64,000 bases of DNA. Origin: Acholeplasma sp. (lineage in GTDB: Bacteria > Bacillota_I > Bacilli_A > Acholeplasmatales > UBA5453). Positions 9,182-40,283 of this stretch are shown piece after piece. The stretch lies in NCBI GenBank assembly GCA_036677365.1, contig JAVBWN010000012.1, positions 64,001-128,000 of the forward strand, written 5' to 3'. Each line of letters opens with the position of its first letter. Position 1 is the stretch's first letter. The notes beneath the pieces are model-generated. The model saw nothing but the letters and a program-made list of their open reading frames with translations, was not told where the DNA came from and searched no databases. Made by a program: the position numbers and the translations under genes.

Positions 9182-9248
9182 TTTCAATTCATTAGTGTCA
9201 TCGATGTAGAAAAGGTAAATGAACAAGATAAAAGGAGTAGAACAGCGA

Positions 9249-10982: not shown

Positions 10983-11348
10983 TTATTTATCCCACCAATC
11001 ATCTATACGAAGACCAGTTAAGTTTTGATACTGTTTTGTTAATTCAAAACCCAATAGGTCAAAAAACTTTAGTTCGGTAAGAGAAAAAAGTGATCCAATT
11101 CTTTCAATTTGTAAACTGCACAGGTGAATGACGATGATATTAGGGCTGTGATTTTCGATATACTGAATTGTCAAAGTACATCCATCAAGTGCAAAAACTA
11201 GACTATTTTTTTCAAGTTTTTGATGGTTTCCTTGAATATCTCTTTTCTCATCCTCTTCATTTCCTTTATTAGGTAATATCTCAGTGTAAACATTTGGAAT
11301 ATAGAACGACACAATCGTTCCTACTAATTCTTTTAGGTTATTTTGCAT
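10983..11348 (-). CDS. Hypothetical protein
   Basis: The only credible minus-strand gene; AAGGAG upstream on the minus strand; divergent from 11438. Confidence 0.5.
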   Translation of the reverse strand: MQNNLKELVGTIVSFYIPNVYTEILPNKGNEEDEKRDIQGNHQKLEKNSLVFALDGCTLTIQYIENHSPNIIVIHLCSLQIERIGSLFSLTELKFFDLLGFELTKQYQNLTGLRIDDWWDK

Positions 11349-11437
11349 GGTAAATTCATCTCCTTATATGTATTGTAACAGAAGATTTATCACTTTGTTT
11401 AAATATTTGATAGAATATACTTAATGAGGTATGAGAC

Positions 11438-11938
11438 ATGCAATTAGAAAAATTTAAACATTATCTATCAAAAACTAATTTGAAGATTGTAAAACAAGAA
11501 CATTCTAATACTAAAATGAAGCTAGAGCATGAGAATGAATTGTTGGGCTTTATAACTATTGAAACCATGGATAAATATTTAAGAAAAAACTCGAAACAGT
11601 TTGAAGACTTTCAGACTATATTTCTTAGATTAGTTGGTCCTGAAAGAACGAATGCAGATATTTGGAAGAACATTAATGTCGACGCGAACTATCATAACAA
11701 GTTAATAAGTAAAAATGAACGCCCGTCAAGAGACAAGGTGTTACAGATCATTATTGGCTTAAGATGTAATTTACAAGAAGCTGAGAAATTACTCGCCTCT
11801 GTTGGATATTCATTTAACAATTCCTTTAAGGATTTAATCATAAAAGCACACATAGAAAGTAACGATTATGATATTTTTAGCATCAATGAGCTATTGAAAT
11901 ACTACAAAGAAAAACCACTATTTTCAGATGAAGCATAA
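11438..11938 (+). CDS. Putative XRE-like HTH DNA-binding protein
   Basis: NADIWKNINVDANYHNKLI...PSRDKVLQIIIGLRCNLQEAEKLLASVGYSF resembles the XRE-like domain often found with macrodomain proteins in Bacillota. Confidence 0.55.
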   Translation: MQLEKFKHYLSKTNLKIVKQEHSNTKMKLEHENELLGFITIETMDKYLRKNSKQFEDFQTIFLRLVGPERTNADIWKNINVDANYHNKLISKNERPSRDKVLQIIIGLRCNLQEAEKLLASVGYSFNNSFKDLIIKAHIESNDYDIFSINELLKYYKEKPLFSDEA

Positions 11939-11957
11939 TAGACAAAAAAGTCAAGTA

Positions 11958-11987
11958 GACGCGAGGATGTATCTTGCGTTTTTTTTT
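11958..11987 (+). terminator. Intrinsic terminator
   Basis: GACGCGAGGA-TGTA-TCTTGCGTT hairpin followed by a long T-run. Confidence 0.65.
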
Positions 11988-12094
11988 GGTTTATAATAAC
12001 TATGTGTCAAACTTAAAACATTAAAATGACATAGGGTATTTAACGATTGAAACACATCTATAGATTTTTCAGGTCACTAATCATTGGAGGGAAT

Positions 12095-12427
12095 ATGATG
12101 TACAAGCATTTTATTATTAGAGAGTATTTATATCCTGAAGAGGTCTATAACCCTCAAATTTTGAATCAACAAATCTGTGTCAATTTTGATTATGAAGAAG
12201 AAATGGAGGAATCATTTGAACTAATTAAACAAAATTCTATATACATTCAAGGTGAAAAAATGAACAATAAAAGTTGTATAAGATCATCAACTATTAAAGT
12301 GATATTCTATGTTACAACCGATGCACTTGCGTTAGAGCTTGCCACACGTTGGATAAACGAGTCAAAACAAAAAAATAAAGGTTACAAAATCATCGGTATT
12401 GACCGATACTATTCTGCCTTAGAATAA
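12095..12427 (+). CDS. Hypothetical protein
   Basis: GGAGG RBS before ATG 12095. Confidence 0.55.
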   Translation: MMYKHFIIREYLYPEEVYNPQILNQQICVNFDYEEEMEESFELIKQNSIYIQGEKMNNKSCIRSSTIKVIFYVTTDALALELATRWINESKQKNKGYKIIGIDRYYSALE

Positions 12428-12437
12428 AGGAGAAAAA

Positions 12438-12755
12438 ATGATAAGAATTAAAAAACTGGATGAACTAAGTATTGATTTAGTGGCAGATATTTATCCAAAA
12501 CTAAGAGAATTCTTTGATCAAATAACCTTTGATAACTATGATCAATACATCATGGGGTATGAGTATGGCCCTTATCTTTTATATGAATCTTTCAATTTTA
12601 TGCCGAGTTCAGATGAACAGGATGATCAAATCATTGAATTTGAACAACGTAAACTATTCTTATTCTTGAATGGTGTCTTACTGTATCATATTCAATCCAT
12701 GGATCGAATAATTTTAATATGCGATGCTTATGACATCGAACATAAATTCAAATAA
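12438..12755 (+). CDS. Hypothetical protein
   Basis: AAGGAG RBS; operon spacing. Confidence 0.6.
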   Translation: MIRIKKLDELSIDLVADIYPKLREFFDQITFDNYDQYIMGYEYGPYLLYESFNFMPSSDEQDDQIIEFEQRKLFLFLNGVLLYHIQSMDRIILICDAYDIEHKFK

Positions 12756-12803
12756 TTAGTGAAATCATAAACAGAAGTATATAGACATTTTGGAGGAAAA
12801 ATA

Positions 12804-14714
12804 ATGAAGTTCATCGATTTAAAATTTGAAGAAAATGAGACTAAAAATGCATTTATTGTTACGCGGTGTTTATCAGAAAACAAGTGCATCTATATCCCTG
12901 ATGAAATTGCTGGAAAGCCTGTTATTGGTTTTTCAAGCACCTTTAAACTAAATGATTACAACAAGGTTATAGTACTTGGGAAACATATGGATAGTATCTC
13001 TGATGACATTCTAAATGAAGGTAATGAACTCACGGTTTATTCATATAATGATTTAAAGGATAATAGCCACACTGAAGACATCACAATTAGAGCTAATCTA
13101 GAATCTATATATGAAGATATGGATGTGATTTTTGGACTTTTTGGTGATAAAACAGCATATGTGATAGACAATCAAATAGTGGATTCGATGAAGATTGGTT
13201 TTGGTACTTGGGGTAGATTAATTGTTATACCAACCATGATTAATGATGAGTATAAAGTTGTTGGTATCGGAAATCATGCATTCTCAAATGCCATAAATTT
13301 AAAGAAGATTCTCTTGCCAGAAACCATAAAATGGATAGGAAAATTTGCATTCGAAAACTGTTATAAATTAGAAGATATCGCCTTGAATAGCGATATTCTA
13401 TGTATAGATGATTTCTCATTTAGCAGGTGTCATCATTTAGGTCGAGTTGAAATTAATGGTAACGTCGAGTATATGGGCAAAAACATTCTAAATGATTCAT
13501 TCAGATCATATTTACTATTTAATCAACTCGATACTGGCAACTTCAACAATAATTGGAATTTACAAAATAGACCAGTATATTATGGTTTTGTGGAGTTACT
13601 TTCAAGAAATGAACTGATTTATGCACTATTTAATGATTTTACTGCTGTTATAATAAGTAACCAATTAAGCAAACACACATTTCTAGAACTTCCTGAAAGA
13701 GTGGTATACATGAATCAAGAATATTTAGTCAAAGAAATAGCCCCATATGCATTTTACAAGTGTGTTAATCTGTTTCAAATTGAAATCCCATTCTCAATAA
13801 GCAAAATACATGCATATGCATTTTCAGGGACTTTATTGAGGGAAGTCACACTCCCACACCACATGGAATACATTGGAGAAGGCATTTTTGCCAATTCTAT
13901 ATTATTGGAATCTATTGTCATGCCTATAAATATAGAATTTATCCCTAAAAATTTCTCGAATAACTGTCAAAGTCTACATTCAGTAACCTTACCAGATAAT
14001 GTGAAAGTCATCTGTGAATCAGCATTTCAAGGGTGTTCGAAATTGACAAACATGAGTTTACCCAGTTCATTAGAAGTATTAGAATCCATGTGTCTATATG
14101 ATACAGATCTACCACTAATTATTTTAGGTCAAAATGTAAAAAAAGTAGAAGATCTCGCATTAGCTTGTAATAATACATTGGAGTCGATAGTATTTATGAA
14201 TTCGAATTGTATTATCGGTGAAAATTCATTATCATCAGACCGGTTAATCAAAATATATATCGCGGGTCCTGAAGAGAATCATTTAGCTTTGGTTTTACAT
14301 AGAACTTATGGCAAAAAAATCAATATTTTTACTGAAGTTGAAAAAACCATTGTTGATCATGGAATTATATATCTATTAAATGAATTTGGTGCTGCGATAG
14401 TTATTGGTCATCAGGATGAATCGCTAAATGAAAACGCCGTTATAAAAGCTCAGATTGAAGGTAATAATACTATTAAAGTGGATAGAAAAGCATTCTATAA
14501 TTCTAGACGTCTGAAAAATCTCTATATTCCTGATGGTGTAACTGAACTCAATCCTTATTTCATTCAAAATTGTTATAATCTCCAAAAGGTCTCCATTCCA
14601 GACAGTTTTAAGCATACATTAGCAAGTTGGTATCCGGGATCTCATCAAGTAAAAATTGAGATTAGATCTAAAAAAGTAACAAACGACAATAAAGAAATTG
14701 AGGTAGTATCATGA
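12804..14714 (+). CDS. BspA-type leucine-rich repeat (LRR_5) protein, no evident signal peptide
   Basis: Repeated LxxIxLPxxIxxIGxxAFxxCxxL units (e.g. LKKILLPETIKWIGKFAFENCYKL, LHSVTLPDNVKVICESAFQGCSKL). Confidence 0.85.
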   Translation: MKFIDLKFEENETKNAFIVTRCLSENKCIYIPDEIAGKPVIGFSSTFKLNDYNKVIVLGKHMDSISDDILNEGNELTVYSYNDLKDNSHTEDITIRANLESIYEDMDVIFGLFGDKTAYVIDNQIVDSMKIGFGTWGRLIVIPTMINDEYKVVGIGNHAFSNAINLKKILLPETIKWIGKFAFENCYKLEDIALNSDILCIDDFSFSRCHHLGRVEINGNVEYMGKNILNDSFRSYLLFNQLDTGNFNNNWNLQNRPVYYGFVELLSRNELIYALFNDFTAVIISNQLSKHTFLELPERVVYMNQEYLVKEIAPYAFYKCVNLFQIEIPFSISKIHAYAFSGTLLREVTLPHHMEYIGEGIFANSILLESIVMPINIEFIPKNFSNNCQSLHSVTLPDNVKVICESAFQGCSKLTNMSLPSSLEVLESMCLYDTDLPLIILGQNVKKVEDLALACNNTLESIVFMNSNCIIGENSLSSDRLIKIYIAGPEENHLALVLHRTYGKKINIFTEVEKTIVDHGIIYLLNEFGAAIVIGHQDESLNENAVIKAQIEGNNTIKVDRKAFYNSRRLKNLYIPDGVTELNPYFIQNCYNLQKVSIPDSFKHTLASWYPGSHQVKIEIRSKKVTNDNKEIEVVS

Positions 14715-15187
14715 AAAAATCGATTTATACAAAAAATGCCTTAGCTTATGAAATAGTGATTGAAGAGTTAAAGACAATATTTAAAAAATATGATGATGAC
14801 TTGATTAAAAAAATTATCGAAAATTCGATTATTCAGACATTAAGGAAGAAATCTGAATATGAAGTACCAAAATATATATCAGTTTTAGCACATGATAGTT
14901 TAGCAGCCTCTAAATATCAAATTTCACGTCATGGTCATGTTCATGAAATCAACAATCTTATCGAACCTATAATATTGGATCATTGTAATCCAATTACTGA
15001 TTTAGTTAGAAAATACCTTAATAATACCTTGGATTCAAAACAGTTGATTGAGCAGAATTTTACAGCCGTTCTGTTAAGAACCGAAGATAAAAAACTATCC
15101 AAAAATAAGTACAAAAGCAAACGATCTATGGGGTGGGAAAAAGCTTATGAGGATTGTGGAATTAAGATTAAACCATACAATCATTAA
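14711..15187 (+). CDS. Hypothetical protein, possible His-Me/HNH-like nuclease
   Basis: ATGA overlap with the LRR gene; IILDHCNPI...VLLRTEDKKL weakly resembles (D/E)HxxP His-Me motifs. Confidence 0.45.
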   Translation: MKKSIYTKNALAYEIVIEELKTIFKKYDDDLIKKIIENSIIQTLRKKSEYEVPKYISVLAHDSLAASKYQISRHGHVHEINNLIEPIILDHCNPITDLVRKYLNNTLDSKQLIEQNFTAVLLRTEDKKLSKNKYKSKRSMGWEKAYEDCGIKIKPYNH

Positions 15188-15255
15188 ATATATACATTGA
15201 AAAGAAAACCCAAGTCGAGAATTAGAAATTAAGAATAATCGAAAGAATCAAATAC

Positions 15256-15287
15256 AGCCTTTAATCTACAAGATAAAGGCTTATTTT
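15256..15287 (+). terminator. Probable intrinsic terminator
   Basis: AGCCTTTA...TAAAGGCT hairpin then TATTTT. Confidence 0.5.
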
Positions 15288-15443
15288 GTGTTACATAGTA
15301 CCATTTATTTAGAAAATGACGTACGTTATTTAAAACTTTAAATCGAAAGACTCTTTTTCAATCATAAAAGGTTATTTTAAATACTATTACATATGGGAAC
15401 CTGTAGGTTTCTAAAATTTCTTGGAAAATGGAGGGTTACATTT

Positions 15444-15983
15444 ATGTACAGTTTGAAAGAGATTCTCGAGTGGTTAAACACTAGAAAAATGAAGGTAAAT
15501 CATTTATTTGGAGAAGAGATTTCGAATCATTCAAATCTCACAGATTTATCATTAATTATGATGCCTAGCGTCAGCAAATCACCTAAAGTTCATGACTTTA
15601 AAGGCATCATATTTCCACCTGATTTGATTGATAAAGAAGAATCGATGCTCAATGCTTTGATAACCATGGATGAAGAAGCATTGTGTTTTGTAGTCTTGAT
15701 AGGTAAAGATGCGTTCAATGCTTTCAATTCAATTGAAAACATGTTAGAAGGGTATTTATATTTTAATCAGGCGTTTCCAATCATCAAAAAAGACAATCAT
15801 GTGCATTTCTTTGTGAGAGATATGTACCACACAAGAAAAGCAATTCAAACTATATCGAATATGGAGATAAAAGTTGTGGTTTTTCGTAATTTCAATGTGG
15901 ATTATTACTCGATGGGTCAAGTAACAAAAATCATTCATCCATCGCTATTCGTTGAATACTATCCATTGGTTTATTCAAAATGA
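15444..15983 (+). CDS. Hypothetical protein
   Basis: GGAGG RBS before ATG 15444. Confidence 0.55.
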   Translation: MYSLKEILEWLNTRKMKVNHLFGEEISNHSNLTDLSLIMMPSVSKSPKVHDFKGIIFPPDLIDKEESMLNALITMDEEALCFVVLIGKDAFNAFNSIENMLEGYLYFNQAFPIIKKDNHVHFFVRDMYHTRKAIQTISNMEIKVVVFRNFNVDYYSMGQVTKIIHPSLFVEYYPLVYSK

Positions 15984-28337: not shown

Positions 28338-28664
28338 TGGCCTAAGCGAAAAAGACTTACGAATGCTTTTCTTATGTACACATAATTGCTAATAGATAAA
28401 TAGAAAACCTAGGTTTGTTAATATGGTTGTTTTTCTATAGACGATATTTTATATGGAATTTTTAATAAATCTTTATAAGTAACATAATAAATCAAAAATA
28501 CATTTGAAAGAGAGTATTTTATGTGAGATGATTTTACCGTATTTTGATGTACTAAAAAATCGTTGTATAGATATCAAGTTAATGATAAAATTTAAGTAGT
28601 ATTCTATAATTTGAAATAGTCATCTGTAACAGTTTTATAAAATATTGGATGGGGAGGTATCGAT

Positions 28665-29570
28665 ATGTCATATGCTTTTTATTATATGTTAACACCGAGA
28701 TGCTTGCTTAACTGTGGGTATTGTTTCAGAGATACTAGTAAAGAATCCCTAGAAAGAGAACTTACACTCGAAGATAAGAAAAAAGTTTTGACCTCTTTAG
28801 TAGAGGTTTTTTATGCTAGAAAAATTACACTATCTGGTGGTGAACCCACCATTACTGGTGGTGTAGTACTTACTCAATTTCTAGATTTAATGAGTCACGT
28901 TAAAGAACTTAAATTGAATCACCCAACACTTAGAATCGAGTTGTTAACGAATGCTATTTTATTAGATAGAGATGTGCTCGAAAAATTGGTGGGCATTGTC
29001 GATAGAATCACAATAACATTGGACACAATTAATGAAGAAATCTTAGAGAAAATTGGCCGAAACACTGGAAAATATAACAACTATTTAAGTCGGTTTAAAC
29101 AAAGAATGATGGATATGAACGACTTAGGATTTGAAACAAAAATTCATTCAGTGATTACACCAGTTAATTACGATTATCTAGAAGAATTAGCACAATATAT
29201 CAAAGATAATAACCACTTATTCAAAATTAATCGTTGGAAGTTTTATCAGTATATGACATACGATGATCCAGTTAAAGATGCCATTTATCAAATAGATGAT
29301 AATAAGTTTGATATTATGTGCAAAAAAATCTCAAGTATCATAGATGGCACTGGCATTGATGTTACATTCAAGGATAATAAACTGATGTTAGATTCTATGC
29401 TGAATTTGACTCACTATGGATGCTTAGAACACGTGACCATATTGGATGGCATTAAAAGAAACTTTGTATCAAAGCCGATTTGGTTATATCCCAATCTAAT
29501 GGAATTATTAAATGATATTCATTTACCAATAGAAAAACTGAACCAGTATCATAGCTATCAAGATGAGTAA
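28665..29570 (+). CDS. Viperin-like radical SAM enzyme
   Basis: CLLNCGYC (CxxxCxxC), KITLSGGEP, LLTNA, KIHSVI, RWKFYQ and MLDSM parallel the viperin motifs KINFSGGEP, KINSVI, RWKVFQ and MKDSY. Confidence 0.75.
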   Translation: MSYAFYYMLTPRCLLNCGYCFRDTSKESLERELTLEDKKKVLTSLVEVFYARKITLSGGEPTITGGVVLTQFLDLMSHVKELKLNHPTLRIELLTNAILLDRDVLEKLVGIVDRITITLDTINEEILEKIGRNTGKYNNYLSRFKQRMMDMNDLGFETKIHSVITPVNYDYLEELAQYIKDNNHLFKINRWKFYQYMTYDDPVKDAIYQIDDNKFDIMCKKISSIIDGTGIDVTFKDNKLMLDSMLNLTHYGCLEHVTILDGIKRNFVSKPIWLYPNLMELLNDIHLPIEKLNQYHSYQDE

Positions 29571-30279
29571 ACAAGTCTTATTCACTATGGATATAGATTG
29601 GGTCAGCGAACCTGTGATGAAAATCACAATTGATTATATTAAACAATTAAACATACCTTTTCTTATTTTTCAAACTCACATTAGCGAAAGCCTAGTTAAA
29701 GAAACGTCACCATTGATTACATTTGAACTTCATCCAAATTTTTGTGATGGTAGTGATCATGGTAAAACAACTAAAGACGTTATCGAAACCATTTGTAAAT
29801 TTCCTCATAAAGGTCAATCGATTCGCGCACATAAATACTTTATGCCTGATGATGCAATCAAACACATTGATCAGTTTGATTTCAAATATACATTGAATAA
29901 CTTTACAAATTTGAATTATCAAAAACCTGTGAAGATTACTGATAAACTAACAGAGATTCATACATTTTTTGAAGATGGCATTTACTTGAAAAATAAACAA
30001 CCATTAGATGTTGATTTTGTCATTTCAAAAATGAAATCAGATGGATTATATGTGTTCAATATTCACCCGATTCATATCGCTTTTAATGAAAAGGATTATC
30101 AATTAACGCGAAACTTTAAAGACTCGATGACTAAAGATGAGTATCGGTCTATAAGTGCTGAGTTTATTAATAAAAATAAATACAATGGGTATGGAATTGC
30201 TTCGTTTATTAAAGATCTTGTAAAAGAGCTTAAACAAATGGGATATGATTTCATACATATAGGAGAAGTAATCATATGA
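29563..30279 (+). CDS. Polysaccharide deacetylase-like (CE4/WbmS-like) protein
   Basis: FTMDIDW, ELHPNF, RAH, FFEDG and FNIHPIH motifs. Confidence 0.7.
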   Translation: MSKQVLFTMDIDWVSEPVMKITIDYIKQLNIPFLIFQTHISESLVKETSPLITFELHPNFCDGSDHGKTTKDVIETICKFPHKGQSIRAHKYFMPDDAIKHIDQFDFKYTLNNFTNLNYQKPVKITDKLTEIHTFFEDGIYLKNKQPLDVDFVISKMKSDGLYVFNIHPIHIAFNEKDYQLTRNFKDSMTKDEYRSISAEFINKNKYNGYGIASFIKDLVKELKQMGYDFIHIGEVII

Positions 30280-32135
30280 TTAAATGTGTTCTCTTAGACA
30301 TAGGTAATACACTGGTATCCAAGAGTGGAAATAATGTCGTAGCACCAGTATTGAAAATGGATATTTTGAGATTAAGAAAACAAGGCATTAAGGTTGGTGT
30401 TGCATCTATGAGAACATATGACCTTGCAAAAAGAATTCTTAATGGAATTGATTTTGATTTCTATATATGTTTAAGCGGTGCGCAAATATTTGTGGATGAT
30501 AAACTTTGTTATGATCAACCAATAGATTATCAAGAATCAGCACATCCTTATGTAATTTATTACAGTAACTCAGAAACCTATGCACTCGATGAAGTATCGG
30601 CGAAACTTGGTAGGGAAAAAGGGTTTGTCGTTGAAACAGTCAAATCGAGTCATACGGAAAACCTATATAATGTTTCGTTACTCGATGTAGAGGGAACAGA
30701 AGTAGATTCGTACAAATCAACATACCATACAGAGTATTGGAGTAGAATTAAAGTTTTGGTGCTCCAAAATCCATTGACATCCAAAGCGAATGCAGTTGAT
30801 TTTATAGCAAATTACTATGGGTTCAAACATGATGAACTATTGGGATTTGGTGATGGCCCCAATGATATCGAGTTTCTATCGAGATGTGGCATATCTGTAG
30901 CCATGGGGAAAAATTATAAGGAACTGATGGATTCAACTACTTTTGCGACTGACAAGGAAGGCAATTTAGGCGTTTCCAAAGCTTTAAGGAAATTAGGATT
31001 AATCCAGGATAAAGTGATTCTATTCATCGAATCAGTTAACGAAATCGGTGGTATGGAAATGCACGGTATGTATTTTATGGATTACTTTAAAGAATACACT
31101 GAACTTATCGTAGTTACTCATCAAAACAACAATAATGTTATTGTCTATAAAAACAATACTTGGATTAATGCAAGGATTGATGACATAGGTGTTTTTATAA
31201 AAGAATATGATGCACCAAACACAATGGTTTTCTTCAATTCGGGTCATTGGATTGAAGAAATGTCATTAATACGATATGCATGCCCAAAATCAACCATATT
31301 TTATAGAACTGGTGGCAATGACATCATATCCTCACCAATGCTTGATTTAACGATGAAAGCTAGCGATCGAAGAGTGTTTTGGAAAAACACAATTAATGAG
31401 GTTGTTAATCACCTCATAACCAATAGCGACTTAACAGAACGAAGACTTGTTGATTTTGGTATTAAAAATCATATTCTATACAAGGTGGTTGGAGGCGTGA
31501 ATGTTGCCATAATTCAACAACTGAATGATCAATATTTTGATATCCGAACGGAACTTTTTACACATGAAGGTAGGATTAATTTAGTATCAGTAACAAGATT
31601 TGAACCTTATAAACGAGTAGAGTTGTTGTTACAGACCATGAGTTTATTGGATAGCCATTTATATCATCTTTATTTGATTGGAAATGGACCTTTATTCAAT
31701 GAACTATATAATAAATACAATCATTTGGAACAGGTGACTTTTTTAGGAAAACAAGCACATGATACTGCTTTAAAATATATTTGTGCAGCAGATTTCTATA
31801 TACAATTTAGCGGAGACACTGTGACCAATCTAGATGGATTAACATATATCCATACGGAGGGAATGGGAAGAACCTTACTAGAAGCAATTACTGCAAGAAC
31901 ACGAGTCATCGTAACAAGATGTGGTGCGTTTGAAGAAATAATTGATGACACCCGTGGTGTGATTATGGATAGTAGTGACCCTAAAGAATTATCTATCATA
32001 ATCAAAGAACAGCAAAAGATAGAAAAAGAAAAACAAGCTTTAGAAATTTATGATTTTGATCATGTATTCAACCGATATTTGAATTTGTGGTGGCGGGATG
32101 AAAAAAATACTCATTATAGCAGCGAAACTATATAA
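30276..32135 (+). CDS. Fusion of Cof-type HAD phosphatase and GT4 glycosyltransferase
   Basis: N-terminal LLDIGNTL...VASMR...SKANAV...FGDGPNDIEFL (HAD); C-terminal IGGMEMH...VTRFEPYKRV...IGNGP...EGMGRTLLEA (GT-B/GT4). Confidence 0.8.
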   Translation: MIKCVLLDIGNTLVSKSGNNVVAPVLKMDILRLRKQGIKVGVASMRTYDLAKRILNGIDFDFYICLSGAQIFVDDKLCYDQPIDYQESAHPYVIYYSNSETYALDEVSAKLGREKGFVVETVKSSHTENLYNVSLLDVEGTEVDSYKSTYHTEYWSRIKVLVLQNPLTSKANAVDFIANYYGFKHDELLGFGDGPNDIEFLSRCGISVAMGKNYKELMDSTTFATDKEGNLGVSKALRKLGLIQDKVILFIESVNEIGGMEMHGMYFMDYFKEYTELIVVTHQNNNNVIVYKNNTWINARIDDIGVFIKEYDAPNTMVFFNSGHWIEEMSLIRYACPKSTIFYRTGGNDIISSPMLDLTMKASDRRVFWKNTINEVVNHLITNSDLTERRLVDFGIKNHILYKVVGGVNVAIIQQLNDQYFDIRTELFTHEGRINLVSVTRFEPYKRVELLLQTMSLLDSHLYHLYLIGNGPLFNELYNKYNHLEQVTFLGKQAHDTALKYICAADFYIQFSGDTVTNLDGLTYIHTEGMGRTLLEAITARTRVIVTRCGAFEEIIDDTRGVIMDSSDPKELSIIIKEQQKIEKEKQALEIYDFDHVFNRYLNLWWRDEKNTHYSSETI

Positions 32136-33219
32136 CGATCCTACAGGTGGTGGTGGAACTGTACTTAAAACACTTATTGATACTTTAATCGACGACTATC
32201 AATTGGACTTAATTTTATATAGAACACCTGTGAAAGATTATTATCAACATCCACAATTAAAAACATACTTTCATCCTATTAAATTTCGAAGTCTCAACAA
32301 ATTCGAAAGACGCATTAAAAATATAGAATGGAATATGCAGTACTTGAATGATAATCATGATTTATATTCTTACGAAAAAATCATCATCGTTCACATCAGC
32401 AAACTCTTTGGTTTTGAGATTTTATCCAAGGACATTTTAGCTAAAACGATCATTTTCCCCATGTATTTAACACCTTCATATAAACGTTCAAATGAAGTCG
32501 TTAGCGATGCTTATTTTGATGCAGAAAAAAGAGTTTTAGGACTTGTGGGAAAGATTATAACACCAAGTTTAAGTGAAAAAGAAGATTTGTTACAATTCTA
32601 TCAAGTTGATGAAAGTAAGATTAAAGTAATACCTAGGGGAATAGACAATGTTTTCTTAAATGAGCAGCGACTTGGGTTTCATTTCCCTATAAAATTAATC
32701 ACAGTATCGTCAATCAAACCTCAAAAGAATGTACTCGAATCCATTAAGATTTTAAAGACATTGAGGTCGTTAGGACATAATGTAGTTTTATCGATCATAG
32801 GCAAAGTTGAAGTTCAACATCTTTATGAAGAACTTATTTCATGTATTGATTCAACTGAAATGTCACCATATGTTGATGTTATTCAAGGCTTACCTTTAGA
32901 TTTAGTAGCAGAAGAAATGCATAAAGCAGATCTATTGGTTTTACCCTCTCGATGGGAAACTTTTGGACGTGTTGTGTATGAAGGTTTAGCTTCAGGAATG
33001 CCAGCAGTTATCAAAGACAATATAGATTGTTTTAGTCACTTATATAAACAGCAGTTTATTGCTCCCTACGATACCGTCAATGAAGCGGTTAAAAAAATTG
33101 CTTATTGGATCGATCACTTGGATGAGTATAAGGAAGCATCAAAATTAGCTATCGATTTTTCTATACAGTTCTTGTCTGAATTAGAAAGAAAGCGTCTTTA
33201 TGAGGAAATAACATGTTAG
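32098..33219 (+). CDS. GT4 glycosyltransferase
   Basis: TGGGG, VIPRGID, KPQKN, ADLLVLPSRWETFGRVVYEGLASG. Confidence 0.85.
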   Translation: MKKILIIAAKLYNDPTGGGGTVLKTLIDTLIDDYQLDLILYRTPVKDYYQHPQLKTYFHPIKFRSLNKFERRIKNIEWNMQYLNDNHDLYSYEKIIIVHISKLFGFEILSKDILAKTIIFPMYLTPSYKRSNEVVSDAYFDAEKRVLGLVGKIITPSLSEKEDLLQFYQVDESKIKVIPRGIDNVFLNEQRLGFHFPIKLITVSSIKPQKNVLESIKILKTLRSLGHNVVLSIIGKVEVQHLYEELISCIDSTEMSPYVDVIQGLPLDLVAEEMHKADLLVLPSRWETFGRVVYEGLASGMPAVIKDNIDCFSHLYKQQFIAPYDTVNEAVKKIAYWIDHLDEYKEASKLAIDFSIQFLSELERKRLYEEITC

Positions 33220-34271
33220 GACTTGTCGTCTTAGGTACTAGGCCTGAAGCAATCAAATTAATACCATTAATTCAAAAGTGCTTTAGTGAAGAAATTCCAC
33301 TAAAGATTCTTTCGACAGAACAACACTTTGATGCAGTTCAAACTTTATTTTCAGATAATCATATCAAAATCGATTATCGGTTAGTTCCAAAAAAATACCC
33401 AGACCTTGTATCTCAAACAACAGATTACTTATCGGCAATAAATTCACTCATTAACGATGAAAATTTCGACTTTATTATTAGCCAAGGTGATACAATTTCA
33501 GCTTATGTAGGTATGTTATATGCCTACTTGAGCAAAATAGATTATCTTTACATTGAATCGGGTTTAAGAACAAATGATTTTATGAATCCATTCCCCGAAG
33601 AAGGTCTAAGAACCATGATGAGTCACATTGCAAGAATGAATTTTGTACCTACAAAGCAAGAACAGACCAATCTCGAACTTGAAGGTATTGATAACAATAA
33701 AATAAAGATTGTCGGAAACACAGGTATAGATTATCTCATTAACCATATGAGTAATCAAAATGTTAACACAGTTCCGAAAAGTGTTTTGATTACAATCCAT
33801 AGAAGAGAGAACTGGCCACATTTACATGACTTTTTCTATAGGTTAGCTGAGTATGCAAAAAAACGCTCAGATGTTACATTCGTTTATCCTATACACTTTA
33901 ACCCTGAGATTCAAAGAAAAGCTTATCAATTATTATCTAATATACCTAATATTAGGATTGAAGAACCATTGGTTTCTGAGAAATTTTATACTGTATTATC
34001 ATCATCTGAAATGATTATTACGGACAGTGGAGGTGTACAGGAAGAGGCGACCTATTTAAATAAAAAAGTCGTCATCATACGTGATAAAATCGAAAGACTA
34101 TTTTTGAGTAAGTGTATCAAACAAGTCTCAATAACGGATAAACATTTATTTATTACGATTAATGATCTGCTAGAAATACCTCTAGTAGAAAAACCAAATA
34201 ATCTAGTGTATGGCGATGGATTTGCATCAGAAAGAATAGTTGAATGGATAAAAGAGGAGTATCGAAGATGA
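33213..34271 (+). CDS. wecB: UDP-N-acetylglucosamine 2-epimerase (non-hydrolysing)
   Basis: GTRPEAIKL, QGDT, ESGLRT, PFPEE, VGNT, TIHRREN, TDSGGVQEEA. Confidence 0.9.
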   Translation: MLGLVVLGTRPEAIKLIPLIQKCFSEEIPLKILSTEQHFDAVQTLFSDNHIKIDYRLVPKKYPDLVSQTTDYLSAINSLINDENFDFIISQGDTISAYVGMLYAYLSKIDYLYIESGLRTNDFMNPFPEEGLRTMMSHIARMNFVPTKQEQTNLELEGIDNNKIKIVGNTGIDYLINHMSNQNVNTVPKSVLITIHRRENWPHLHDFFYRLAEYAKKRSDVTFVYPIHFNPEIQRKAYQLLSNIPNIRIEEPLVSEKFYTVLSSSEMIITDSGGVQEEATYLNKKVVIIRDKIERLFLSKCIKQVSITDKHLFITINDLLEIPLVEKPNNLVYGDGFASERIVEWIKEEYRR

Positions 34272-35434
34272 ATATAACAATCATAGGTTTGGGTTATATT
34301 GGGTTCCCAGTAGCGATAAAATTAGCGGAAGCTGGTTTTCACATTCATGGTTATGATATCGATAGTCAGAGAATACAGGATATAGAAACTGGTAATTTCA
34401 ACATACAAGAACCTGAACTATATGAAAGATATCATGCAGTAAAATCAAATTTATCCATATCGACTAAATTGGTTAAATCAAGTACATATATTGTTACAGT
34501 TCAGACACCAGTAGATCAAAATAATAAAGCCGATGTTAGTTATGTAAATAGAGCACTTCAAGACATTGGGAAGTTTTTGTCAAAAGGTGATTTGGTTATT
34601 TTAGAGTCCACTGTCCCACCATATTCAAATGAGGTTTTTCATGCGTATCTTTCTGAGATTTCTCAAATAAATATCAATGATTTCGATTATGCATACTGTC
34701 CTGAAACGATACAACCCGGCAATGTTTTTTATGAATTGTCAACCAATCCGAGAGTAATTGGAAGTATTAATGAGCGTGCCTTTAAGCGTACTGAGTTGAT
34801 ATATAGCAAACTCACCAAAGGTAAGATTACGCATACGAACTACATAACAGCTGAGCATGTCAAAATCATGCAAAATGCATATAGAGATTACGAGATTGCT
34901 TTTGCAAACGCATTATCGATTTATTGTGACCAACATCGAATGAATGTGTTTGAACTTATTGGTCTAATTAATCAACACCCAAGAGCGAAAGTGTTGAATC
35001 CTGGCGTTGGCGTTGGTGGTCATTGCTTACCCGTTGATACGTTATTCATTATTGAGAAATCGAGCTTCGAGCCAATCATATTTTCAAGAAACATGAACAA
35101 CCATAAAACAGACTATGTCGTTGAAAAAATAATGAGTCAAGCACCAAAAAAAGTTATCCTTTTTGGTGCTACTTATAAACCGAACTCTGATGATTTAAGA
35201 CATTCACCTAGCATTGAAATAGCAAATCAGTTGATAAGTATTAATATTGAGGTTCTCTTTTGTGAACCCAATATAAATCAAGAGTTTATCTATGGTATTA
35301 AGAACATAAAGTTTGATGAAGCAATTAAGATAAAATCTCTTAAAGTCATCACTCAAAAGCACGATGTTTTCATCAAGGGATATGACAATTTTGGAAAGAT
35401 TGATTTTATTGACTTTGTTGGACTAGATTCTTAA
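34268..35434 (+). CDS. wecC: UDP-N-acetyl-D-mannosamine dehydrogenase-like nucleotide-sugar dehydrogenase
   Basis: IGLGYIG, VQTP, ESTVPP, YCPE, NAYRD..IAFAN, PGVGVGGHCLPVD, YKPNSDDLRHSP. Confidence 0.85.
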   Translation: MNITIIGLGYIGFPVAIKLAEAGFHIHGYDIDSQRIQDIETGNFNIQEPELYERYHAVKSNLSISTKLVKSSTYIVTVQTPVDQNNKADVSYVNRALQDIGKFLSKGDLVILESTVPPYSNEVFHAYLSEISQININDFDYAYCPETIQPGNVFYELSTNPRVIGSINERAFKRTELIYSKLTKGKITHTNYITAEHVKIMQNAYRDYEIAFANALSIYCDQHRMNVFELIGLINQHPRAKVLNPGVGVGGHCLPVDTLFIIEKSSFEPIIFSRNMNNHKTDYVVEKIMSQAPKKVILFGATYKPNSDDLRHSPSIEIANQLISINIEVLFCEPNINQEFIYGIKNIKFDEAIKIKSLKVITQKHDVFIKGYDNFGKIDFIDFVGLDS

Positions 35435-35602: not shown

Positions 35603-36076
35603 ATGTTCTTATTTATATTATTCTCAATGATATTGTTTGCATGCAACAGCTCGGAAACGAATAATGAAGTATTTGCAGTTGTTCATTACGATAATAGTAT
35701 GTGGAGTTCGACCAATGGTAAAATAATATTTGGTACATCTTCATTCTCTAGTTCTAAGCCTGTTTATTTTTATAACGAGAAAAAGAATGCGATTCAACTT
35801 CAGCCATCAAAAAATGGGAATATAATTAGCAATATTGATGCAGAATGGGAAAAGATTTTTTCAATTGAGTCGATAGGAATGCAACAAGTTTATTTTCTTA
35901 ATAATGTCACAAGTAAATATGAACTCATTAATGAAAATGAAATAGAGGTTTATAAAATTACAATACACACAGAAGCATCTTCAACGATTATTATTAATGA
36001 AATATTTGTTATAAGAGTCGAAGATATATCTGCATTTGAGTTTAATTATAAAGTTGAAGAATTAAAAGACAGATAA
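35603..36076 (+). CDS. Putative lipoprotein (signal peptide start apparently frameshifted)
   Basis: Hydrophobic stretch ending in lipobox LFAC; the RBS-linked ATG at 35586 is one base out of frame. Confidence 0.55.
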   Translation: MFLFILFSMILFACNSSETNNEVFAVVHYDNSMWSSTNGKIIFGTSSFSSSKPVYFYNEKKNAIQLQPSKNGNIISNIDAEWEKIFSIESIGMQQVYFLNNVTSKYELINENEIEVYKITIHTEASSTIIINEIFVIRVEDISAFEFNYKVEELKDR

Positions 36077-36228: not shown

Positions 36229-37317
36229 ATGGGTTATATAAACTACACATTAAAAGATAACGAAATTATTCAAAATAGATACGATTCCATGAAGCCTCTA
36301 AAAATAGGCATAAAGATAGTTGAACCAAAGTTGGATTGTGTATATTGTAAACTGGTATTCGACGATGCATTAAAACTTTATAATCATATTAAAAATGTGC
36401 ATAATGTGGTTAAACCTGTCACTATTGTTAATGGAAAAATACCCAGTCAATCTGGGGATTATTATATCGATCATGTCGATGAAGTTTTAGTTCTTATGTA
36501 TGGCAGTAAACAGATTGTGCTTATAGATAAACTAGTTCAAGAAACCTCAAGTGATACCTACAATCTAACAGAAATAATTAGAACTAGATTATCTCATAAT
36601 AGTGAAGTAATTTTATCGGTTGGAGATTTTTCGTTAAGAATCATTAAGTACAACATAGACTCGATTAAAAATCCAATCGTCCATGACACTATCAAACTGT
36701 GGAATCAAGCCACTTTTAACAATACACCGATTCGAATGATAAATACGGATGAACTTAATCATGCTGAAAAAAAATATATTGAAGCTTTTTATAACTATTT
36801 CATTGCATGTAATGCGAATGGTACAGATAAAGTGAATCGTTATATGGATGCGTATTCGAGACTTCAATCTTTCGAAACGATAAATACATTAGCGAAAACA
36901 ATTCTGAAAGTAATAGCGTTAAAGATGAATTGGATTGACCGTTTAGAACACTTGTCGTTTGAAGAGGATATCTTTAAGATACTTATTGATTTTTTTCACT
37001 TTAAGAATCCACAAATCAGGCTACAGGAATCAGGGCAAGAACAGTTATTTATCGAAAATGAATTAGAGATTCAAATTCGAACCATGCTTAACTTCATGCA
37101 AAGAAATAATGATGAAGTCAAAGCCTATGTCCATAACAAGGACTATTACTTAGATACTCAAGACATCAACGCTAAGGATCGAACATTATTCATACTATAT
37201 AGATATTTTCAATTGATTGAAAATTCTAAGAATGCATCTGGAATTATTGAAGCCTTTACAAGTGATACTCTACGTGAATTATGCAAAAATAACATGAATG
37301 AAATACAAGGAGGCTAA
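36229..37317 (+). CDS. Hypothetical protein with an N-terminal C2H2-type zinc finger
   Basis: CVYCKLVFDDALKLYNHIKNVH = CxxC-x12-H-x4-H with the conserved F and L; helical C-terminus. Confidence 0.65.
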   Translation: MGYINYTLKDNEIIQNRYDSMKPLKIGIKIVEPKLDCVYCKLVFDDALKLYNHIKNVHNVVKPVTIVNGKIPSQSGDYYIDHVDEVLVLMYGSKQIVLIDKLVQETSSDTYNLTEIIRTRLSHNSEVILSVGDFSLRIIKYNIDSIKNPIVHDTIKLWNQATFNNTPIRMINTDELNHAEKKYIEAFYNYFIACNANGTDKVNRYMDAYSRLQSFETINTLAKTILKVIALKMNWIDRLEHLSFEEDIFKILIDFFHFKNPQIRLQESGQEQLFIENELEIQIRTMLNFMQRNNDEVKAYVHNKDYYLDTQDINAKDRTLFILYRYFQLIENSKNASGIIEAFTSDTLRELCKNNMNEIQGG

Positions 37318-38428
37318 AGAAGTGAGTCAGAAAAAAAATAATAAAAAAGAAGTAGATGTATCCAATTTAATCGATGAAATTCAAGGGAAAGAATTAGCTC
37401 TAGCAATTTTAAATGATTCAAAAGCACCAACTAATATCGAAAAATTGATTGTGGACAACATCAAAAATAAGAGTCTTTCAATCCACGCTTTGAAAGCTGT
37501 TTTAGACGTGATTGATAATCGATTTAGATTGCATAAAATTAACATTCTATTAAAACTCTATACTGCTTTAAAAGATATTAAAACTAATGACATAACGGCA
37601 CATGACTTAATTCGAGCTTACATTTTAGATGCTGTAGTGACCATATTGGATGAGATTAAAAGTGAATACATTCATGAAGAGAATCAATCTTTTTTTACTA
37701 CTAACGGAGGGTTAAAATCTTTTTATGAGGATACCTTTAATAAAATGAGGTTTGCCAAAAATCTTGATTTTATTAGCCCTGCTAAGCAAAAAGATCAAAG
37801 TTTTAGATATAGTGCCATTATATGTTATATCTACAGCATGCTCTTTAATCACTTAGACACTATTACCAAGAAAAATGAACTTTATTGGCGAATTGACCGA
37901 ACTTTAGCTGAATTCTTTGCTGGTTTGACAGCCAATGATCAGTTTAAGTACATTGGAGATACTGTACTTAAAGCGTTAAATAGCAAAAATTTTAAGCAAG
38001 AACTTTCTAAACAAGTTCATTTATATGTAGCTGACCAAAATATCACTGAACTACTTATTAGTGATAAAGAAGAGTTGACAGAATCAGTTGTTAATCTTAA
38101 TAAGATGGTTACAACTTTAAAAATGAAAGTTATAGAATTAGAAACAACCAACCGCAGTTTGAATGCTGAAAATGCATTATGCAGGAAACAGAACGAATCA
38201 CTTAATGTAGAAATTAGTAAGGTGAACAATAGACTTGAATTTGAAATCAATAAGTTTGAGAAACAATACGAATCATTCAGGGAGAACGTATTATCTCAAA
38301 TTAAAAAAGATTTAGATTTAGAAATTTTAGGTGTTCGTGACATCATTGAACCTCTAAATGATGAAACGAAAGCTATGATTATTCGAAGACTTGGTCGAAT
38401 TGACAATATATTAAGTAAGAAAAACTAA
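37298..38428 (+). CDS. Hypothetical protein with a C-terminal coiled coil
   Basis: Heptad-rich C-terminal ~110 aa; overlaps the upstream gene; 11 nt before the Hsp70 gene. Confidence 0.65.
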   Translation: MKYKEAKEVSQKKNNKKEVDVSNLIDEIQGKELALAILNDSKAPTNIEKLIVDNIKNKSLSIHALKAVLDVIDNRFRLHKINILLKLYTALKDIKTNDITAHDLIRAYILDAVVTILDEIKSEYIHEENQSFFTTNGGLKSFYEDTFNKMRFAKNLDFISPAKQKDQSFRYSAIICYIYSMLFNHLDTITKKNELYWRIDRTLAEFFAGLTANDQFKYIGDTVLKALNSKNFKQELSKQVHLYVADQNITELLISDKEELTESVVNLNKMVTTLKMKVIELETTNRSLNAENALCRKQNESLNVEISKVNNRLEFEINKFEKQYESFRENVLSQIKKDLDLEILGVRDIIEPLNDETKAMIIRRLGRIDNILSKKN

Positions 38429-38439
38429 AGGAGCCCCTT

Positions 38440-39978
38440 ATGGCAAAGATAGGTATAGACTTTGGAACAACAAACTCGCTGCTTGTCGCATTTGATAAAG
38501 ACAAAAGAGAGTTTACTTATTTTAATTACATAGATAATACTCCCGTCCCAACATCCTCTACAGTATGGTATCACGATAATGATGTTGTTGTTGGTGATAT
38601 GGCTAGAGAAAAAATGTATCAATTATCAGGTGTAGATGGACATCACTTTGAACGATCGGTTAAGCTCAAGTTGGCCAATTCTGAATCGATTAATATCTTT
38701 GGTGAACGCGTTCAGCCACACAAGGTTGCAGGTCAAATTATTAATAAGCTTAAAGAAGATTCAATTCAAAAATATAAAGCAAATATTCTTGATATCGATT
38801 TAAATCGTGCTGTTTTTACCATACCAGTTAATTTTAGCGGCAAATCTCGAGAAGAGCTTAGACGTAGTGCCCATGAAGCTGGAATTGAAATTACAACTTT
38901 TATTCATGAACCGTTTGCCGCGATTGTTGCCTATTATTTTAATAAGTGTCATAAAAACCACACAAATGTTGTGCAAGAATTGGACCACTTAAACAGTCAG
39001 TACTTACTCACATTTGACTGGGGTGGAGGAACACTTGATATAACCGTTGTACAAATTGAAAATGGCAAAATATCAGAAAAAGGAACCTCAGAACTTACAA
39101 ACAGAGCAGGAGACAAATTTGATGAAGATTTAGCTCGTTATGTCTGGAGCAAATTTATCGATCAAAAAGGTAAAAAGTACAATCCTGAATACTTAGAAAA
39201 AATACGCATACAACGCTGGGGCCGATTGTTATCGATTGCTGAAAAATGTAAAATTCAGTTATCAACCGATATGCAGTCGGAGTTCATTTTGGAAAGAGTT
39301 ATGGAAAATGAAAATATTGATATCATCATTCATAGAGATGACTTCACCAAAATCATTGAAAGTACGGTGACAGATGCTCTAAACAAAATTGATGAAGCCT
39401 TAAAACAAGCTGGCATCAAAGACATAGATATTTCTAGTGTATTACTGATTGGTGGTACATGTAATATTCCAGCCATTCAAAAAGCCGTCACAAATAAATT
39501 TGGACACCGTGTTGTTACAGTAGAAAACCCTGAATTACTGATTGCACAAGGTGCAGCCATCATCTCTGAAATGGCATGGTTACCGGTCTTAACAAAAGAT
39601 ATCTTAGTTCAATTATCAGATGATTCTTATTACCCACTCTTTGAACGAAATCTGCCTATAGCCTCTAATATGAATGCAGTGAAGTCTGAAACATTTACGT
39701 GCGTTGACCATCGTGGAAAAAACGCAAAAGTAATCATTTGTGAAGGGTTAGATCAAGATGCACATAAAACTTTAGGTATTATTAATGTGCCATTATTGGG
39801 ACATGATTTGTTTGGCGACGATATTTTTGTAGAAGCTAAAATTAATCGAGATATTGTTTTGCATGTGAGTGGCTATAGCAAAATGTCGCAAGGACACAAA
39901 ACCCCAGAGCAACAGTATTCAGTTAGAAAATCTTGTGAAATCAACCAATTATGTTTTGGTTTAGACATTAAAAGGTGA
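38440..39978 (+). CDS. Atypical Hsp70-family protein (not DnaK)
   Basis: IGIDFGTTNS, TIPVNF, IHEPFAA, FDWGGGTLD, AGDKFD, AEKCKIQLS, LIGGTCNIP; short C-terminal beta domain without the DnaK lid. Confidence 0.85.
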   Translation: MAKIGIDFGTTNSLLVAFDKDKREFTYFNYIDNTPVPTSSTVWYHDNDVVVGDMAREKMYQLSGVDGHHFERSVKLKLANSESINIFGERVQPHKVAGQIINKLKEDSIQKYKANILDIDLNRAVFTIPVNFSGKSREELRRSAHEAGIEITTFIHEPFAAIVAYYFNKCHKNHTNVVQELDHLNSQYLLTFDWGGGTLDITVVQIENGKISEKGTSELTNRAGDKFDEDLARYVWSKFIDQKGKKYNPEYLEKIRIQRWGRLLSIAEKCKIQLSTDMQSEFILERVMENENIDIIIHRDDFTKIIESTVTDALNKIDEALKQAGIKDIDISSVLLIGGTCNIPAIQKAVTNKFGHRVVTVENPELLIAQGAAIISEMAWLPVLTKDILVQLSDDSYYPLFERNLPIASNMNAVKSETFTCVDHRGKNAKVIICEGLDQDAHKTLGIINVPLLGHDLFGDDIFVEAKINRDIVLHVSGYSKMSQGHKTPEQQYSVRKSCEINQLCFGLDIKR

Positions 39979-40283
39979 TTAGTATGAAACAAAAATCCAA
40001 TATCAAAATCATATCGAACATTATGTTACAAGATAAATATAAAGTTTCACCATCCTCATTTGTTCCTTGGGAACTTTTAAGAAAAGAAGAAAGAGATGTT
40101 CGTTATCATCCAAACTTGACACCACACCAATTAAATCAATTAAAGAAGCACTTGTGGTATGCGAAGAGAATCGAAAATGATGACGGTACGGTGACAATAT
40201 TAAACGAAAATGCCGAAGTTATCAAAACAATAACCGAGGATGAATATTTGGTTCAATTGATTAATAAATCTGAACATATCTAA
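39975..40283 (+). CDS. Small hypothetical protein
   Basis: GTGA overlap with the Hsp70 stop; 102 aa. Confidence 0.5.
   Translation: MISMKQKSNIKIISNIMLQDKYKVSPSSFVPWELLRKEERDVRYHPNLTPHQLNQLKKHLWYAKRIENDDGTVTILNENAEVIKTITEDEYLVQLINKSEHI

Follow-up and report, generated by a model that had tools for sequence, protein, structure and literature searches.

A viperin-superfamily radical SAM enzyme in a probable sugar-tailoring operon of an Acholeplasma defence island

The operon and its setting

The window analysed here is a 64,000-nucleotide stretch of DNA from Acholeplasma sp. (GenBank assembly GCA_036677365.1, contig JAVBWN010000012.1, positions 64,001 to 128,000). At 28665..35434 it carries an operon that encodes a viperin-like radical S-adenosylmethionine enzyme (rSAM), an N-deacetylase, two family 4 glycosyltransferases (GT4a and GT4b), a HAD-IIB phosphatase domain and two nucleotide-sugar enzymes. 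The operon is most likely one copy of a horizontally mobile biosynthetic cassette, which is neither a canonical prokaryotic viperin (pVip) defence gene nor a surface-polysaccharide locus. The features of the locus are as follows.

28582..28610, plus strand: candidate sigma-70-like promoter, 10 of 12 consensus positions, in a 327-nt AT-rich gap
28665..29570, plus strand: viperin-superfamily rSAM (P0001), 301 aa; Pfam Radical_SAM, 2.2e-21
29563..30279, plus strand: WbmS-like N-deacetylase, 238 aa; Pfam PF22537, 7.9e-30
30276..32135, plus strand: HAD-IIB (Cof-type) and GT4a fusion, 619 aa; Hydrolase_3 at residues 6-237, Glycos_transf_1 at residues 425-585
32098..33219, plus strand: GT4b, 373 aa; Pfam Glyco_transf_4 and Glycos_transf_1
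33213..34271, plus strand: WecB, non-hydrolysing UDP-GlcNAc 2-epimerase; TIGR00236, 247.1 bits (cutoff 210.15)
34244..35434, plus strand: WecC-like NDP-sugar 6-dehydrogenase; TIGR03026, 316 bits (cutoff 190)

An earlier reading of this DNA, referred to here as the original prediction, had described six overlapping genes and no membrane protein. Both points are confirmed: the list of open reading frames (ORFs) has exactly six in this interval, all on the plus strand and at the coordinates first noted, the Pfam and NCBIfam matches agree, and none of the six proteins contains a membrane segment by hydropathy (19-residue windows, Kyte-Doolittle mean of at least 1.6). Along the operon, consecutive genes overlap by 8, 4, 38, 7 and 28 nt. 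The first ATG, that of the rSAM gene, has a GGGGAGG ribosome-binding site 7 nt upstream, and the AT-rich gap separates this gene from a helicase gene further upstream. The six genes are one translationally coupled operon. Sigma-70-like sites in the region of the candidate promoter number 39, with 46.9 expected in shuffles, so that the site is weak evidence alone; promoter and terminator scans showed no enrichment over shuffles.

Surrounding the operon is a dense defence island, as had been claimed, identified by PADLOC and family searches of the window genes. It includes Hachiman HamB-like, NucC-like, Abi_2, type I restriction–modification, MkoA-like, PDC-M37B-like and NERD+UvrD genes, and the immediate upstream neighbour of the operon encodes a Hhe/ProA/PDC-S37-like helicase-nuclease.

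The radical SAM enzyme

All of the rSAM motifs quoted in the original prediction (YYM, CLLNCGYC, KITLSGGEP, KIHSV, RWKFYQ and DSM) are present in the translation, and profile and structure searches agree with its description of the enzyme as viperin-like. The top NCBIfam match is viperin_w_prok (NF038283), which at 99.1 bits stays below the curated cutoff of 180; of five family representatives, P0049 scores 103.6 bits against this model and the other four are not listed at E ≤ 1e-28. The MoaA model TIGR02666 gives 66 bits (cutoff 284), which does not warrant a MoaA assignment, and the BlsE model TIGR04466 is absent among the best 25 of 47 NCBIfam matches. The pVip models match the rSAM at 1.8e-30 and are the sole PADLOC matches of the six operon proteins. 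Viperins also rank first (about 1e-10) in a sequence search of the PDB, with MoaA at 3e-4.

An AlphaFold2 model of the rSAM, built on 52 family sequences (pLDDT 95.5), has a viperin fold that spans approximately 300 columns in Foldseek, the C-terminal extension included, with TM values to viperins of 0.71-0.76. Ranks 1-19 listed against the PDB are all viperins or viperin-like enzymes (E of about 1e-17 to 1e-14, TMq 0.68-0.76). Lower matches comprise SuiB and SkfB (TM 0.63-0.65), MoaA (0.55), DesII (0.53-0.55) and BlsE (0.52), with E values for BlsE and DesII of about 1e-10, compared with 1e-17 for viperins.

Searched with a profile of the rSAM family, 1.84 billion representative proteins yielded only 15 at E ≤ 1e-30, below which scores fall from 138 bits to the 100-120 bit range. 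Relatives were labelled with NCBIfam in two sets (164 proteins, 70 + 94): viperin_w_prok is the top match in 32/32 proteins listed of the first set, of which at least five exceed its cutoff, and in the majority of single-domain proteins of the second; the long multi-domain profile matches are SPASM/twitch-type maturases. In a tree of 89 rows (quick IQ-TREE search, SH-aLRT support only, three SPASM-type maturases as outgroup), the rSAM family is monophyletic (16 rows, SH-aLRT 100, stem 0.95). The 25 proteins above the pVip cutoff, including eukaryote-type viperins, form one clade (support 94), and 42 of 43 below-cutoff viperin-like proteins form a third (support 95); rooted on the maturases, the rSAM family branches outside both (support 87, not starred).

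The family is a sharply delimited sister family of the viperins. Judged on its sequence, the rSAM itself is viperin-like but no pVip, and founds a distinct clade of its own within the viperin superfamily. The predicted grouping with viperins thus stands for the fold and fails for the clade and the pocket, the rSAM lying outside the pVip clade with the N-x-H motif and a conserved Tyr replaced.

Longer rSAM fusion proteins were absent at E ≤ 1e-20, which is weak evidence, and the ESM Atlas returned only generic ‘radical SAM’ clusters. A Pfam ‘ocr DNA mimic’ match in the rSAM (E 0.004, 18 bits, cutoff 25) was set aside as a chance or generic match.

Altered pocket residues

Residues were counted by column in 52 family rows, 44 below-cutoff rows and 25 pVip rows. 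Invariant in the family (52/52) are C13, C17 and C20 of the CxxxCxxC motif and G58-G59-E60 of GGEP. The columns aligned with mouse viperin K120, R194, K220 and K247, residues that we take to bind the triphosphate and its γ-phosphate, are kept in all three groups, the family having K/R53 (49/52), R132, K159 and K192 (each 52/52).

Other pocket residues differ. The N-x-H preceding the cluster, with Asn in 23 and His in 24 of the 25 pVips, becomes Y-[YW]-M in the family (Tyr 48/52, Met 48/52); the column of viperin N222 holds His in 52/52 family rows, and that of viperin Y302, a Tyr in 24/25 pVips, holds Met, Leu or Phe in 52/52. Further invariant residues particular to the family are K236 and Y196. 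Since basic residues of the triphosphate-binding type are kept while the pocket is altered, the substrate is expected to differ from that of the 3′-deoxy-3′,4′-didehydronucleoside triphosphate (ddhNTP) synthases; we infer one that bears a di- or triphosphate, held in a remodelled, more hydrophobic pocket.

A second viperin-like enzyme of Trichoderma virens (PDB 9dfn/9dfu) naturally carries N-Y-F rather than N-Y-H, and its F40H variant has been crystallised; variation at this position of the pocket already exists within accepted viperin-like enzymes.

Distribution and architecture of the cassette

Scanning species-representative genomes with the rSAM family alignment gave 48 loci (numbered L001 onwards), whose gene content was assigned by tblastn with the window proteins. 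A deacetylase homologue lies just after the rSAM in 47/48 loci, a HAD_2 gene intervening in six, and both GT4s are present in 45/48, the incomplete loci being L028 (truncated contig), L040 (degraded copy) and L048 (no family member). About ten phyla are covered, among them Bacillota, Mycoplasmatota, Bacteroidota, Chlamydiota, Pseudomonadota, Myxococcota, Gemmatimonadota and Planctomycetota, and 23 of 47 cassette loci come from intracellular lineages.

Two gene orders recur. The A-type (11 loci) places the rSAM first and derives from Clostridia, a ‘Mollicutes’ gut bin, Bacteroidota, Thiotrichaceae and one bin labelled Pacearchaeota. The B-type (35 loci) has the order (WecC-WecB)-GT4a-GT4b/HAD-rSAM-deacetylase and is found in Chlamydiota (12), Myxococcota (4), Rickettsiales (3), Holosporales (2), Mycoavidus (2) and Longimicrobium (2), with single loci in Legionellaceae, Francisellaceae, Caedibacter and Cardinium, plus six others. 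The HAD-IIB domain is always present, in three arrangements: at the N terminus of GT4a (the window), as a separate gene (other A-type loci) or at the C terminus of GT4b (B-type). In L004, from the gut ‘Mollicutes’ bin, a single 1294-aa ORF (11612-15496) joins HAD-IIB, GT4a, GT4b and WecB, a fusion that acts as a natural Rosetta stone for the pathway.

WecB is found in the cassette at 31/47 loci and WecC at 25/47; six A-type loci have WecB and no WecC, and seven B-type loci (L008, L009, L010, L013, L029, L038 and L041) have neither despite about 7 kb of upstream sequence. The conserved core is therefore rSAM, deacetylase, two GT4s and the HAD-IIB domain, with WecB and WecC optional, and is smaller than the self-contained six-gene unit of the original prediction. 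As WecB and WecC are optional, a uronic acid would lie outside the conserved chemistry; this weakens the predicted analogy with BlsE, an enzyme whose fold (TM 0.52) is also less similar to the rSAM than is that of viperin.

Two of the loci call for separate comment. In L045, the ‘Candidatus Pacearchaeota archaeon’ bin, which was compared with L020 and L024, the HAD_2 protein and its Thiomargarita nelsonii counterpart share 98.6% identity; L045 is probably a misbinned bacterial contig and no archaeal copy. L040, a fifth Myxococcota locus, is a fragmented copy at 7462-11598 with split rSAM and deacetylase matches and GT4 remnants, and this decayed copy and the intact L013 occur in one Myxococcia metagenome-assembled genome.

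The sugar enzymes

The deacetylase has a single PDB sequence match, WbmS (3hft, 1.5e-08). The HAD-IIB domain resembles the sugar-phosphate phosphatase BT4131, is distant kin of the mannosyl-3-phosphoglycerate phosphatase family (NCBIfam, 3.5e-05) and gives weak matches to the S6PP and MPGP families. Both GT4s are retaining glycosyltransferases. The GT4a profile matches PimB′ best (2.8e-26), followed by BshA, TarM and MshA, and also sucrose-phosphate-synthase-like structures; MshA is among the GT4b profile matches. By these profiles the two are akin to PimB′, BshA and MshA, whose acceptors are small polyols or acids. Weak NCBIfam matches to GlcNAc-phosphatidylglycerol synthase, TuaC and exopolysaccharide transferases all lie far under their cutoffs (for example, 41 bits versus 480). 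A 40-residue GT4-conflict match in GT4b (26.2 bits, cutoff 26) was taken as chance or generic.

The dehydrogenase looks most like WecC but scores 282 bits with the WecC equivalog NF008286, whose cutoff is 459; because it passes only the subfamily model TIGR03026, its substrate is deduced from the neighbouring WecB.

Accessory phosphatases and exporters

Adjoining the rSAM in 10 of 11 A-type loci is a HAD_2 phosphatase, with copies approximately 30% identical between Clostridia and Bacteroidota; L001 (P0020) has phosphatase and rSAM as one fused protein. L004 has a 189-aa ORF at the HAD_2 position, with no Pfam match and no BLAST match to other HAD_2 proteins. In 23/35 B-type loci a ComB-like phosphatase (PF04029), in convergent orientation, follows the deacetylase.

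In 13/35 B-type loci the 1 kb on one or the other side of the cassette holds a fused ABC_membrane+ABC_tran exporter, and a three-gene ABC-2 transporter (ABC2_membrane_6) takes its place in L011 and L047. The original prediction had counted ABC exporters as evidence against itself; such genes are indeed found, although as MsbA/MdlB-type fusions and not as Wzm/Wzt. Nine of the exporters (L010, L016, L021, L025, L029, L030, L031, L038 and L042) show 50-58% identity to the L016 copy and occur across Chlamydiota, Rickettsiaceae, Francisellaceae, Mycoavidus and Caedibacter. Identity at this level across phyla argues that the exporter travels with the cassette, and the sequences suggest that intracellular bacteria have recently exchanged the module as a whole. 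A cassette-linked exporter is missing from all 11 A-type loci, L004 included, and from the window copy.

Neighbourhoods of related loci

Pfam searches covered 194 proteins that flank the cassette in the related loci, from at most three ORFs on each side. No Wzx, Wzy, Wzz, priming transferase or Wzm/Wzt was found among them or in the operon, and the prediction that this is no wzx/wzy polysaccharide locus holds, with a pathway that looks cytoplasmic. The flanks contain housekeeping genes, many transposases, integrases, one relaxase, toxin-antitoxin pairs, eukaryote-like ankyrin, F-box and TPR proteins and, in Mycoavidus, a nonribosomal peptide synthetase; extra polysaccharide-type glycosyltransferases flank the cassette only in L010 and L019.

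A PADLOC search covered 150 proteins, taken from the two ORFs closest to the cassette on each side at 44 loci; excluded were ORFs longer than 1400 aa and two from L003, one of which shares 99.5% identity with the corresponding L002 ORF. Defence or candidate-defence neighbours were detected in 5/44 loci (L004, L012, L019, L025 and L036). The other flank matches were of ABC ATPases (partial, to ‘mad3’), of a relaxase (to RecD-like models) and of TPR, helix-turn-helix and methyltransferase fragments. With only these five loci having defence-type neighbours, the cassette shows no conserved link to defence islands. The expectation that the genes stay together near defence genes in other genomes is therefore borne out for their cohesion, the core being retained as described above, and not for their setting.

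Proposed product and pathway

The loci themselves show soluble enzymes, variously fused to one another, that are transferred together. The pairing of a glycosyltransferase with a HAD-IIB phosphatase is a hallmark of two-step glycoside synthesis on a phosphorylated acceptor, as in the sucrose-phosphate and mannosyl-3-phosphoglycerate synthase/phosphatase pairs. A GT4, a phosphatase and a deacetylase together make up the first three steps of mycothiol synthesis, the logic by which GlcN-inositol and GlcN-malate are formed. We favour, with modest confidence, a product that is a soluble, phosphate-free amino-sugar glycoside of small-molecule size rather than a polymer, exported where an exporter is present.

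WecB and WecC would serve as an optional feeder, converting UDP-GlcNAc to UDP-ManNAc and UDP-ManNAcA. One GT4 would transfer an N-acetylhexosamine onto a phosphorylated acceptor, the HAD domain would remove the phosphate, the deacetylase would free the amine and the second GT4 would add a second sugar. The rSAM may act on a nucleotide or UDP-sugar, bound through its di- or triphosphate, by a radical elimination of the viperin type, whether dehydration or deamination, and the dedicated ABC exporter of many relatives would send the product out of the cell. The strict adjacency of the rSAM to the deacetylase suggests that the two act in consecutive steps. The rSAM could then perform a DesII-like radical elimination beside the freed amine, or a viperin-like dehydration on the nucleotide or UDP-sugar that bears the sugar.

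Several points weigh against this scheme. We infer the product, the acceptor, the rSAM substrate and every chemical step; the phosphate-binding roles of the viperin residues are likewise presumed, and the tree contains no authentic MoaA, BlsE or DesII sequences. MsbA-type exporters can flip lipids too, and PimB′ acts on a glycolipid, so a lipid-linked product is possible. In the window itself, tblastn found no homologue of HAD_2, the ComB-like phosphatase or the ABC exporter anywhere (best E 0.14); lacking an exporter and a second phosphatase, the window copy may make a different or truncated product, or none.

A bolder version of the scheme, itself distinctly unlikely, is that the rSAM family is a third, previously unrecognised branch of the viperin superfamily that initiates an exported nucleoside- or aminoglycoside-like compound from a nucleotide or UDP-sugar. 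Cassette and exporter would have been passed among unrelated lineages resident in eukaryotic cells, namely Chlamydiota, Rickettsiales, Holosporales, Cardinium, Mycoavidus, Caedibacter and Legionellaceae- or Francisellaceae-type bins. The compound would then work inside the host cytoplasm, with competing microbes or host viruses as possible targets; the gut Bacillota copy in the window would represent a variant that has no exporter and was drawn into a defence island.

Alternative explanations

Chief among the alternatives, although unlikely, is an envelope glycoconjugate, in which the GT4s attach GlcN- or ManNAcA-type sugars to a wall polymer or a membrane lipid, giving for instance a cationic aminoglycolipid; the sugar would be tailored by the rSAM and the conjugate flipped outward by the MsbA-like ABC protein. 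UDP-ManNAcA is a classic precursor of envelope polymers, the deacetylase family is named after an O-antigen enzyme, and GT4a is nearest to PimB′, a glycolipid mannosyltransferase. The weak matches to envelope transferases, the ABC_membrane-type exporters beside the cassette in 13 loci and the polysaccharide-type glycosyltransferases adjoining it in L010 and L019 fit as well. However, those matches fall far below their cutoffs, no operon protein has a membrane segment, 0/194 flank proteins belong to the priming, Wzx, Wzy, Wzz or Wzm/Wzt families, and WecB and WecC are dispensable. A soluble sugar-phosphate phosphatase domain and a second phosphatase are also hard to fit into a lipid-linked pathway.

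We regard as distinctly unlikely a role in anti-phage defence, as raised in the original prediction, in which the rSAM would make a ddh-nucleotide-type chain terminator that the sugar enzymes decorate or activate, as one system of the island. Its appeal lies in the dense island around the operon, in the pVip models being the only PADLOC matches of its proteins and in the viperin-like fold with its phosphate-binding basic residues kept. The HAD_2-rSAM fusion in L001 would suit dephosphorylation of a nucleotide product, and defence-like neighbours occur in three of six Bacillota/Mycoplasmatota-type copies, namely the window, L004 (PDC-S27, PDC-S01) and L005 (NACHT). The rSAM nevertheless lies outside the pVip-passing clade, at 99 bits against a cutoff of 180, with N-x-H changed to Y-[YW]-M and the Y302 column invariably Met, Leu or Phe, and across the related loci defence neighbours are confined to 5/44. 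Approximately half of the loci are in obligate intracellular bacteria, in which phage pressure is generally thought to be low, and known pVips, by their PADLOC model names, act singly or beside a kinase rather than among five sugar enzymes.

Least probable, and quite improbable, is a retained cytoplasmic protectant similar to mycothiol, bacillithiol or a compatible solute, at least in the exporter-less A-type copies including the window. In its favour, the set of GT4, phosphatase and deacetylase has a parallel in MshA/MshA2/MshB and BshA/BshB, with both BshA and MshA matched in PDB and NCBIfam searches; the HAD-IIB domain is a distant relative of mannosyl-3-phosphoglycerate phosphatases, and the A-type loci lack a linked exporter. 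Against it, no locus has a cysteine ligase or other thiol-installing gene, and a core redox buffer would not be expected to occur so patchily and in company with mobile elements; the rSAM would stay without a role, and B-type copies have an exporter.

Relation to known systems

With viperin and the pVips the cassette rSAM has in common the fold, the CxxxCxxC and GGEP motifs and the basic residues at K120, R194, K220 and K247. It differs in its score below the cutoff, its separate clade, its Y-[YW]-M/His/Met-Leu pocket, its sugar-enzyme context and the lack of a conserved defence neighbourhood. The early steps of mycothiol (MshA-MshA2-MshB) and bacillithiol (BshA-BshB) synthesis follow the same order, in which a GT4 transfers GlcNAc to a small acceptor, in many cases phosphorylated, and dephosphorylation and N-deacetylation come next; the cassette differs in having no cysteine ligase, an additional GT4 and the rSAM, scores far under those family cutoffs and a WbmS-like deacetylase in place of what we take to be an LmbE-type one. 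In the sucrose-phosphate and mannosyl-3-phosphoglycerate systems a glycosyltransferase is likewise fused or adjacent to a HAD-IIB phosphatase, to which the cassette adds a deacetylase, a second glycosyltransferase and the rSAM; UDP-HexNAc or UDP-ManNAcA would be its probable donors. BlsE (blasticidin S) and DesII, both among the Foldseek matches, are also rSAM enzymes and perform radical eliminations on a nucleoside- or nucleotide-attached sugar; they differ in a poorer fold match (TM 0.52 and 0.55) than viperins, and WecC is absent from 22/47 cassettes.

The aminoglycoside antibiotic (AGAB) cluster of Rickettsia buchneri is sugar-antibiotic-like and accompanied by exporters, and lies on mobile elements in obligate intracellular bacteria (PMC8770908, PMC6300072), features that recall the cassette. 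Its genes, in the portions consulted, include a PIG-L deacetylase, KanB/HemL aminotransferases and a GMC oxidoreductase (PMC8770908, PMC6300072), and the words for rSAM and epimerase each have 0 occurrences in the available text of both papers. Considered as the same system, the cluster was rejected on its different gene set, as far as these sources describe it (PMC8770908, PMC6300072, PMC4564193). Papers on viperin evolution use MoaA as outgroup and, in the sections available, make no mention of a glycosyltransferase-linked viperin clade (bioRxiv 10.1101/2023.09.13.557418, PMC10732462).

No description of the cassette gene set was found in full-text searches of the literature, in line with the earlier statement that no named system has this architecture; the cassette appears to be undescribed, an rSAM-containing sugar-tailoring cassette on a new branch of the viperin superfamily. 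The rSAM family retains the phosphate-binding scaffold together with a different, invariant pocket, and is tied to a glycoside-building cassette. Few immune enzymes are common to animals and bacteria; viperin is among them, and its relatives are, to our knowledge, so far known to make only ddh-nucleotides. If the chemistry were worked out, the known use of viperin-type radical chemistry would become wider, and the cassette could yield a new nucleoside-type or aminoglycoside-type natural product. Its sources in intracellular symbionts and the co-transferred exporter make a role between symbiont and host, or symbiont and competitor, directly testable. The case also cautions that ‘viperin-like, in a defence island’ should not be read as ‘antiviral’.

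Other genes of the island

Directly after the operon, at 35603-36076, is a gene for a 157-aa protein with a lipoprotein-like signal, a hydrophobic stretch ending in LFAC; it has no family match and no homologue in the related loci. Four co-directional genes follow at 36229-40283; two encode proteins of unknown family (362 and 376 aa), and the others a 512-aa Hsp70-like ATPase and a 102-aa protein. They have no PADLOC match and no homologue adjoining the cassette in the 48 loci, and may be a separate uncharacterised system.

Towards the end of the window (58919-61319) are a ClpB-like AAA+ ATPase (PADLOC PDC-M37B/DolB) and, following it, a 197-aa NrdG-like activase-type radical SAM protein, preceded by two unknown proteins at 55642-58907. 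The NrdG-like protein is the second radical SAM protein of the island and is unrelated to that of the operon. At 6909-8363, a NucC/PD-DExK-like nuclease adjoins a 209-aa protein with weak matches (1e-06) to CD-NTases (oligonucleotide cyclases), and the two may be a reduced CBASS-like pair.

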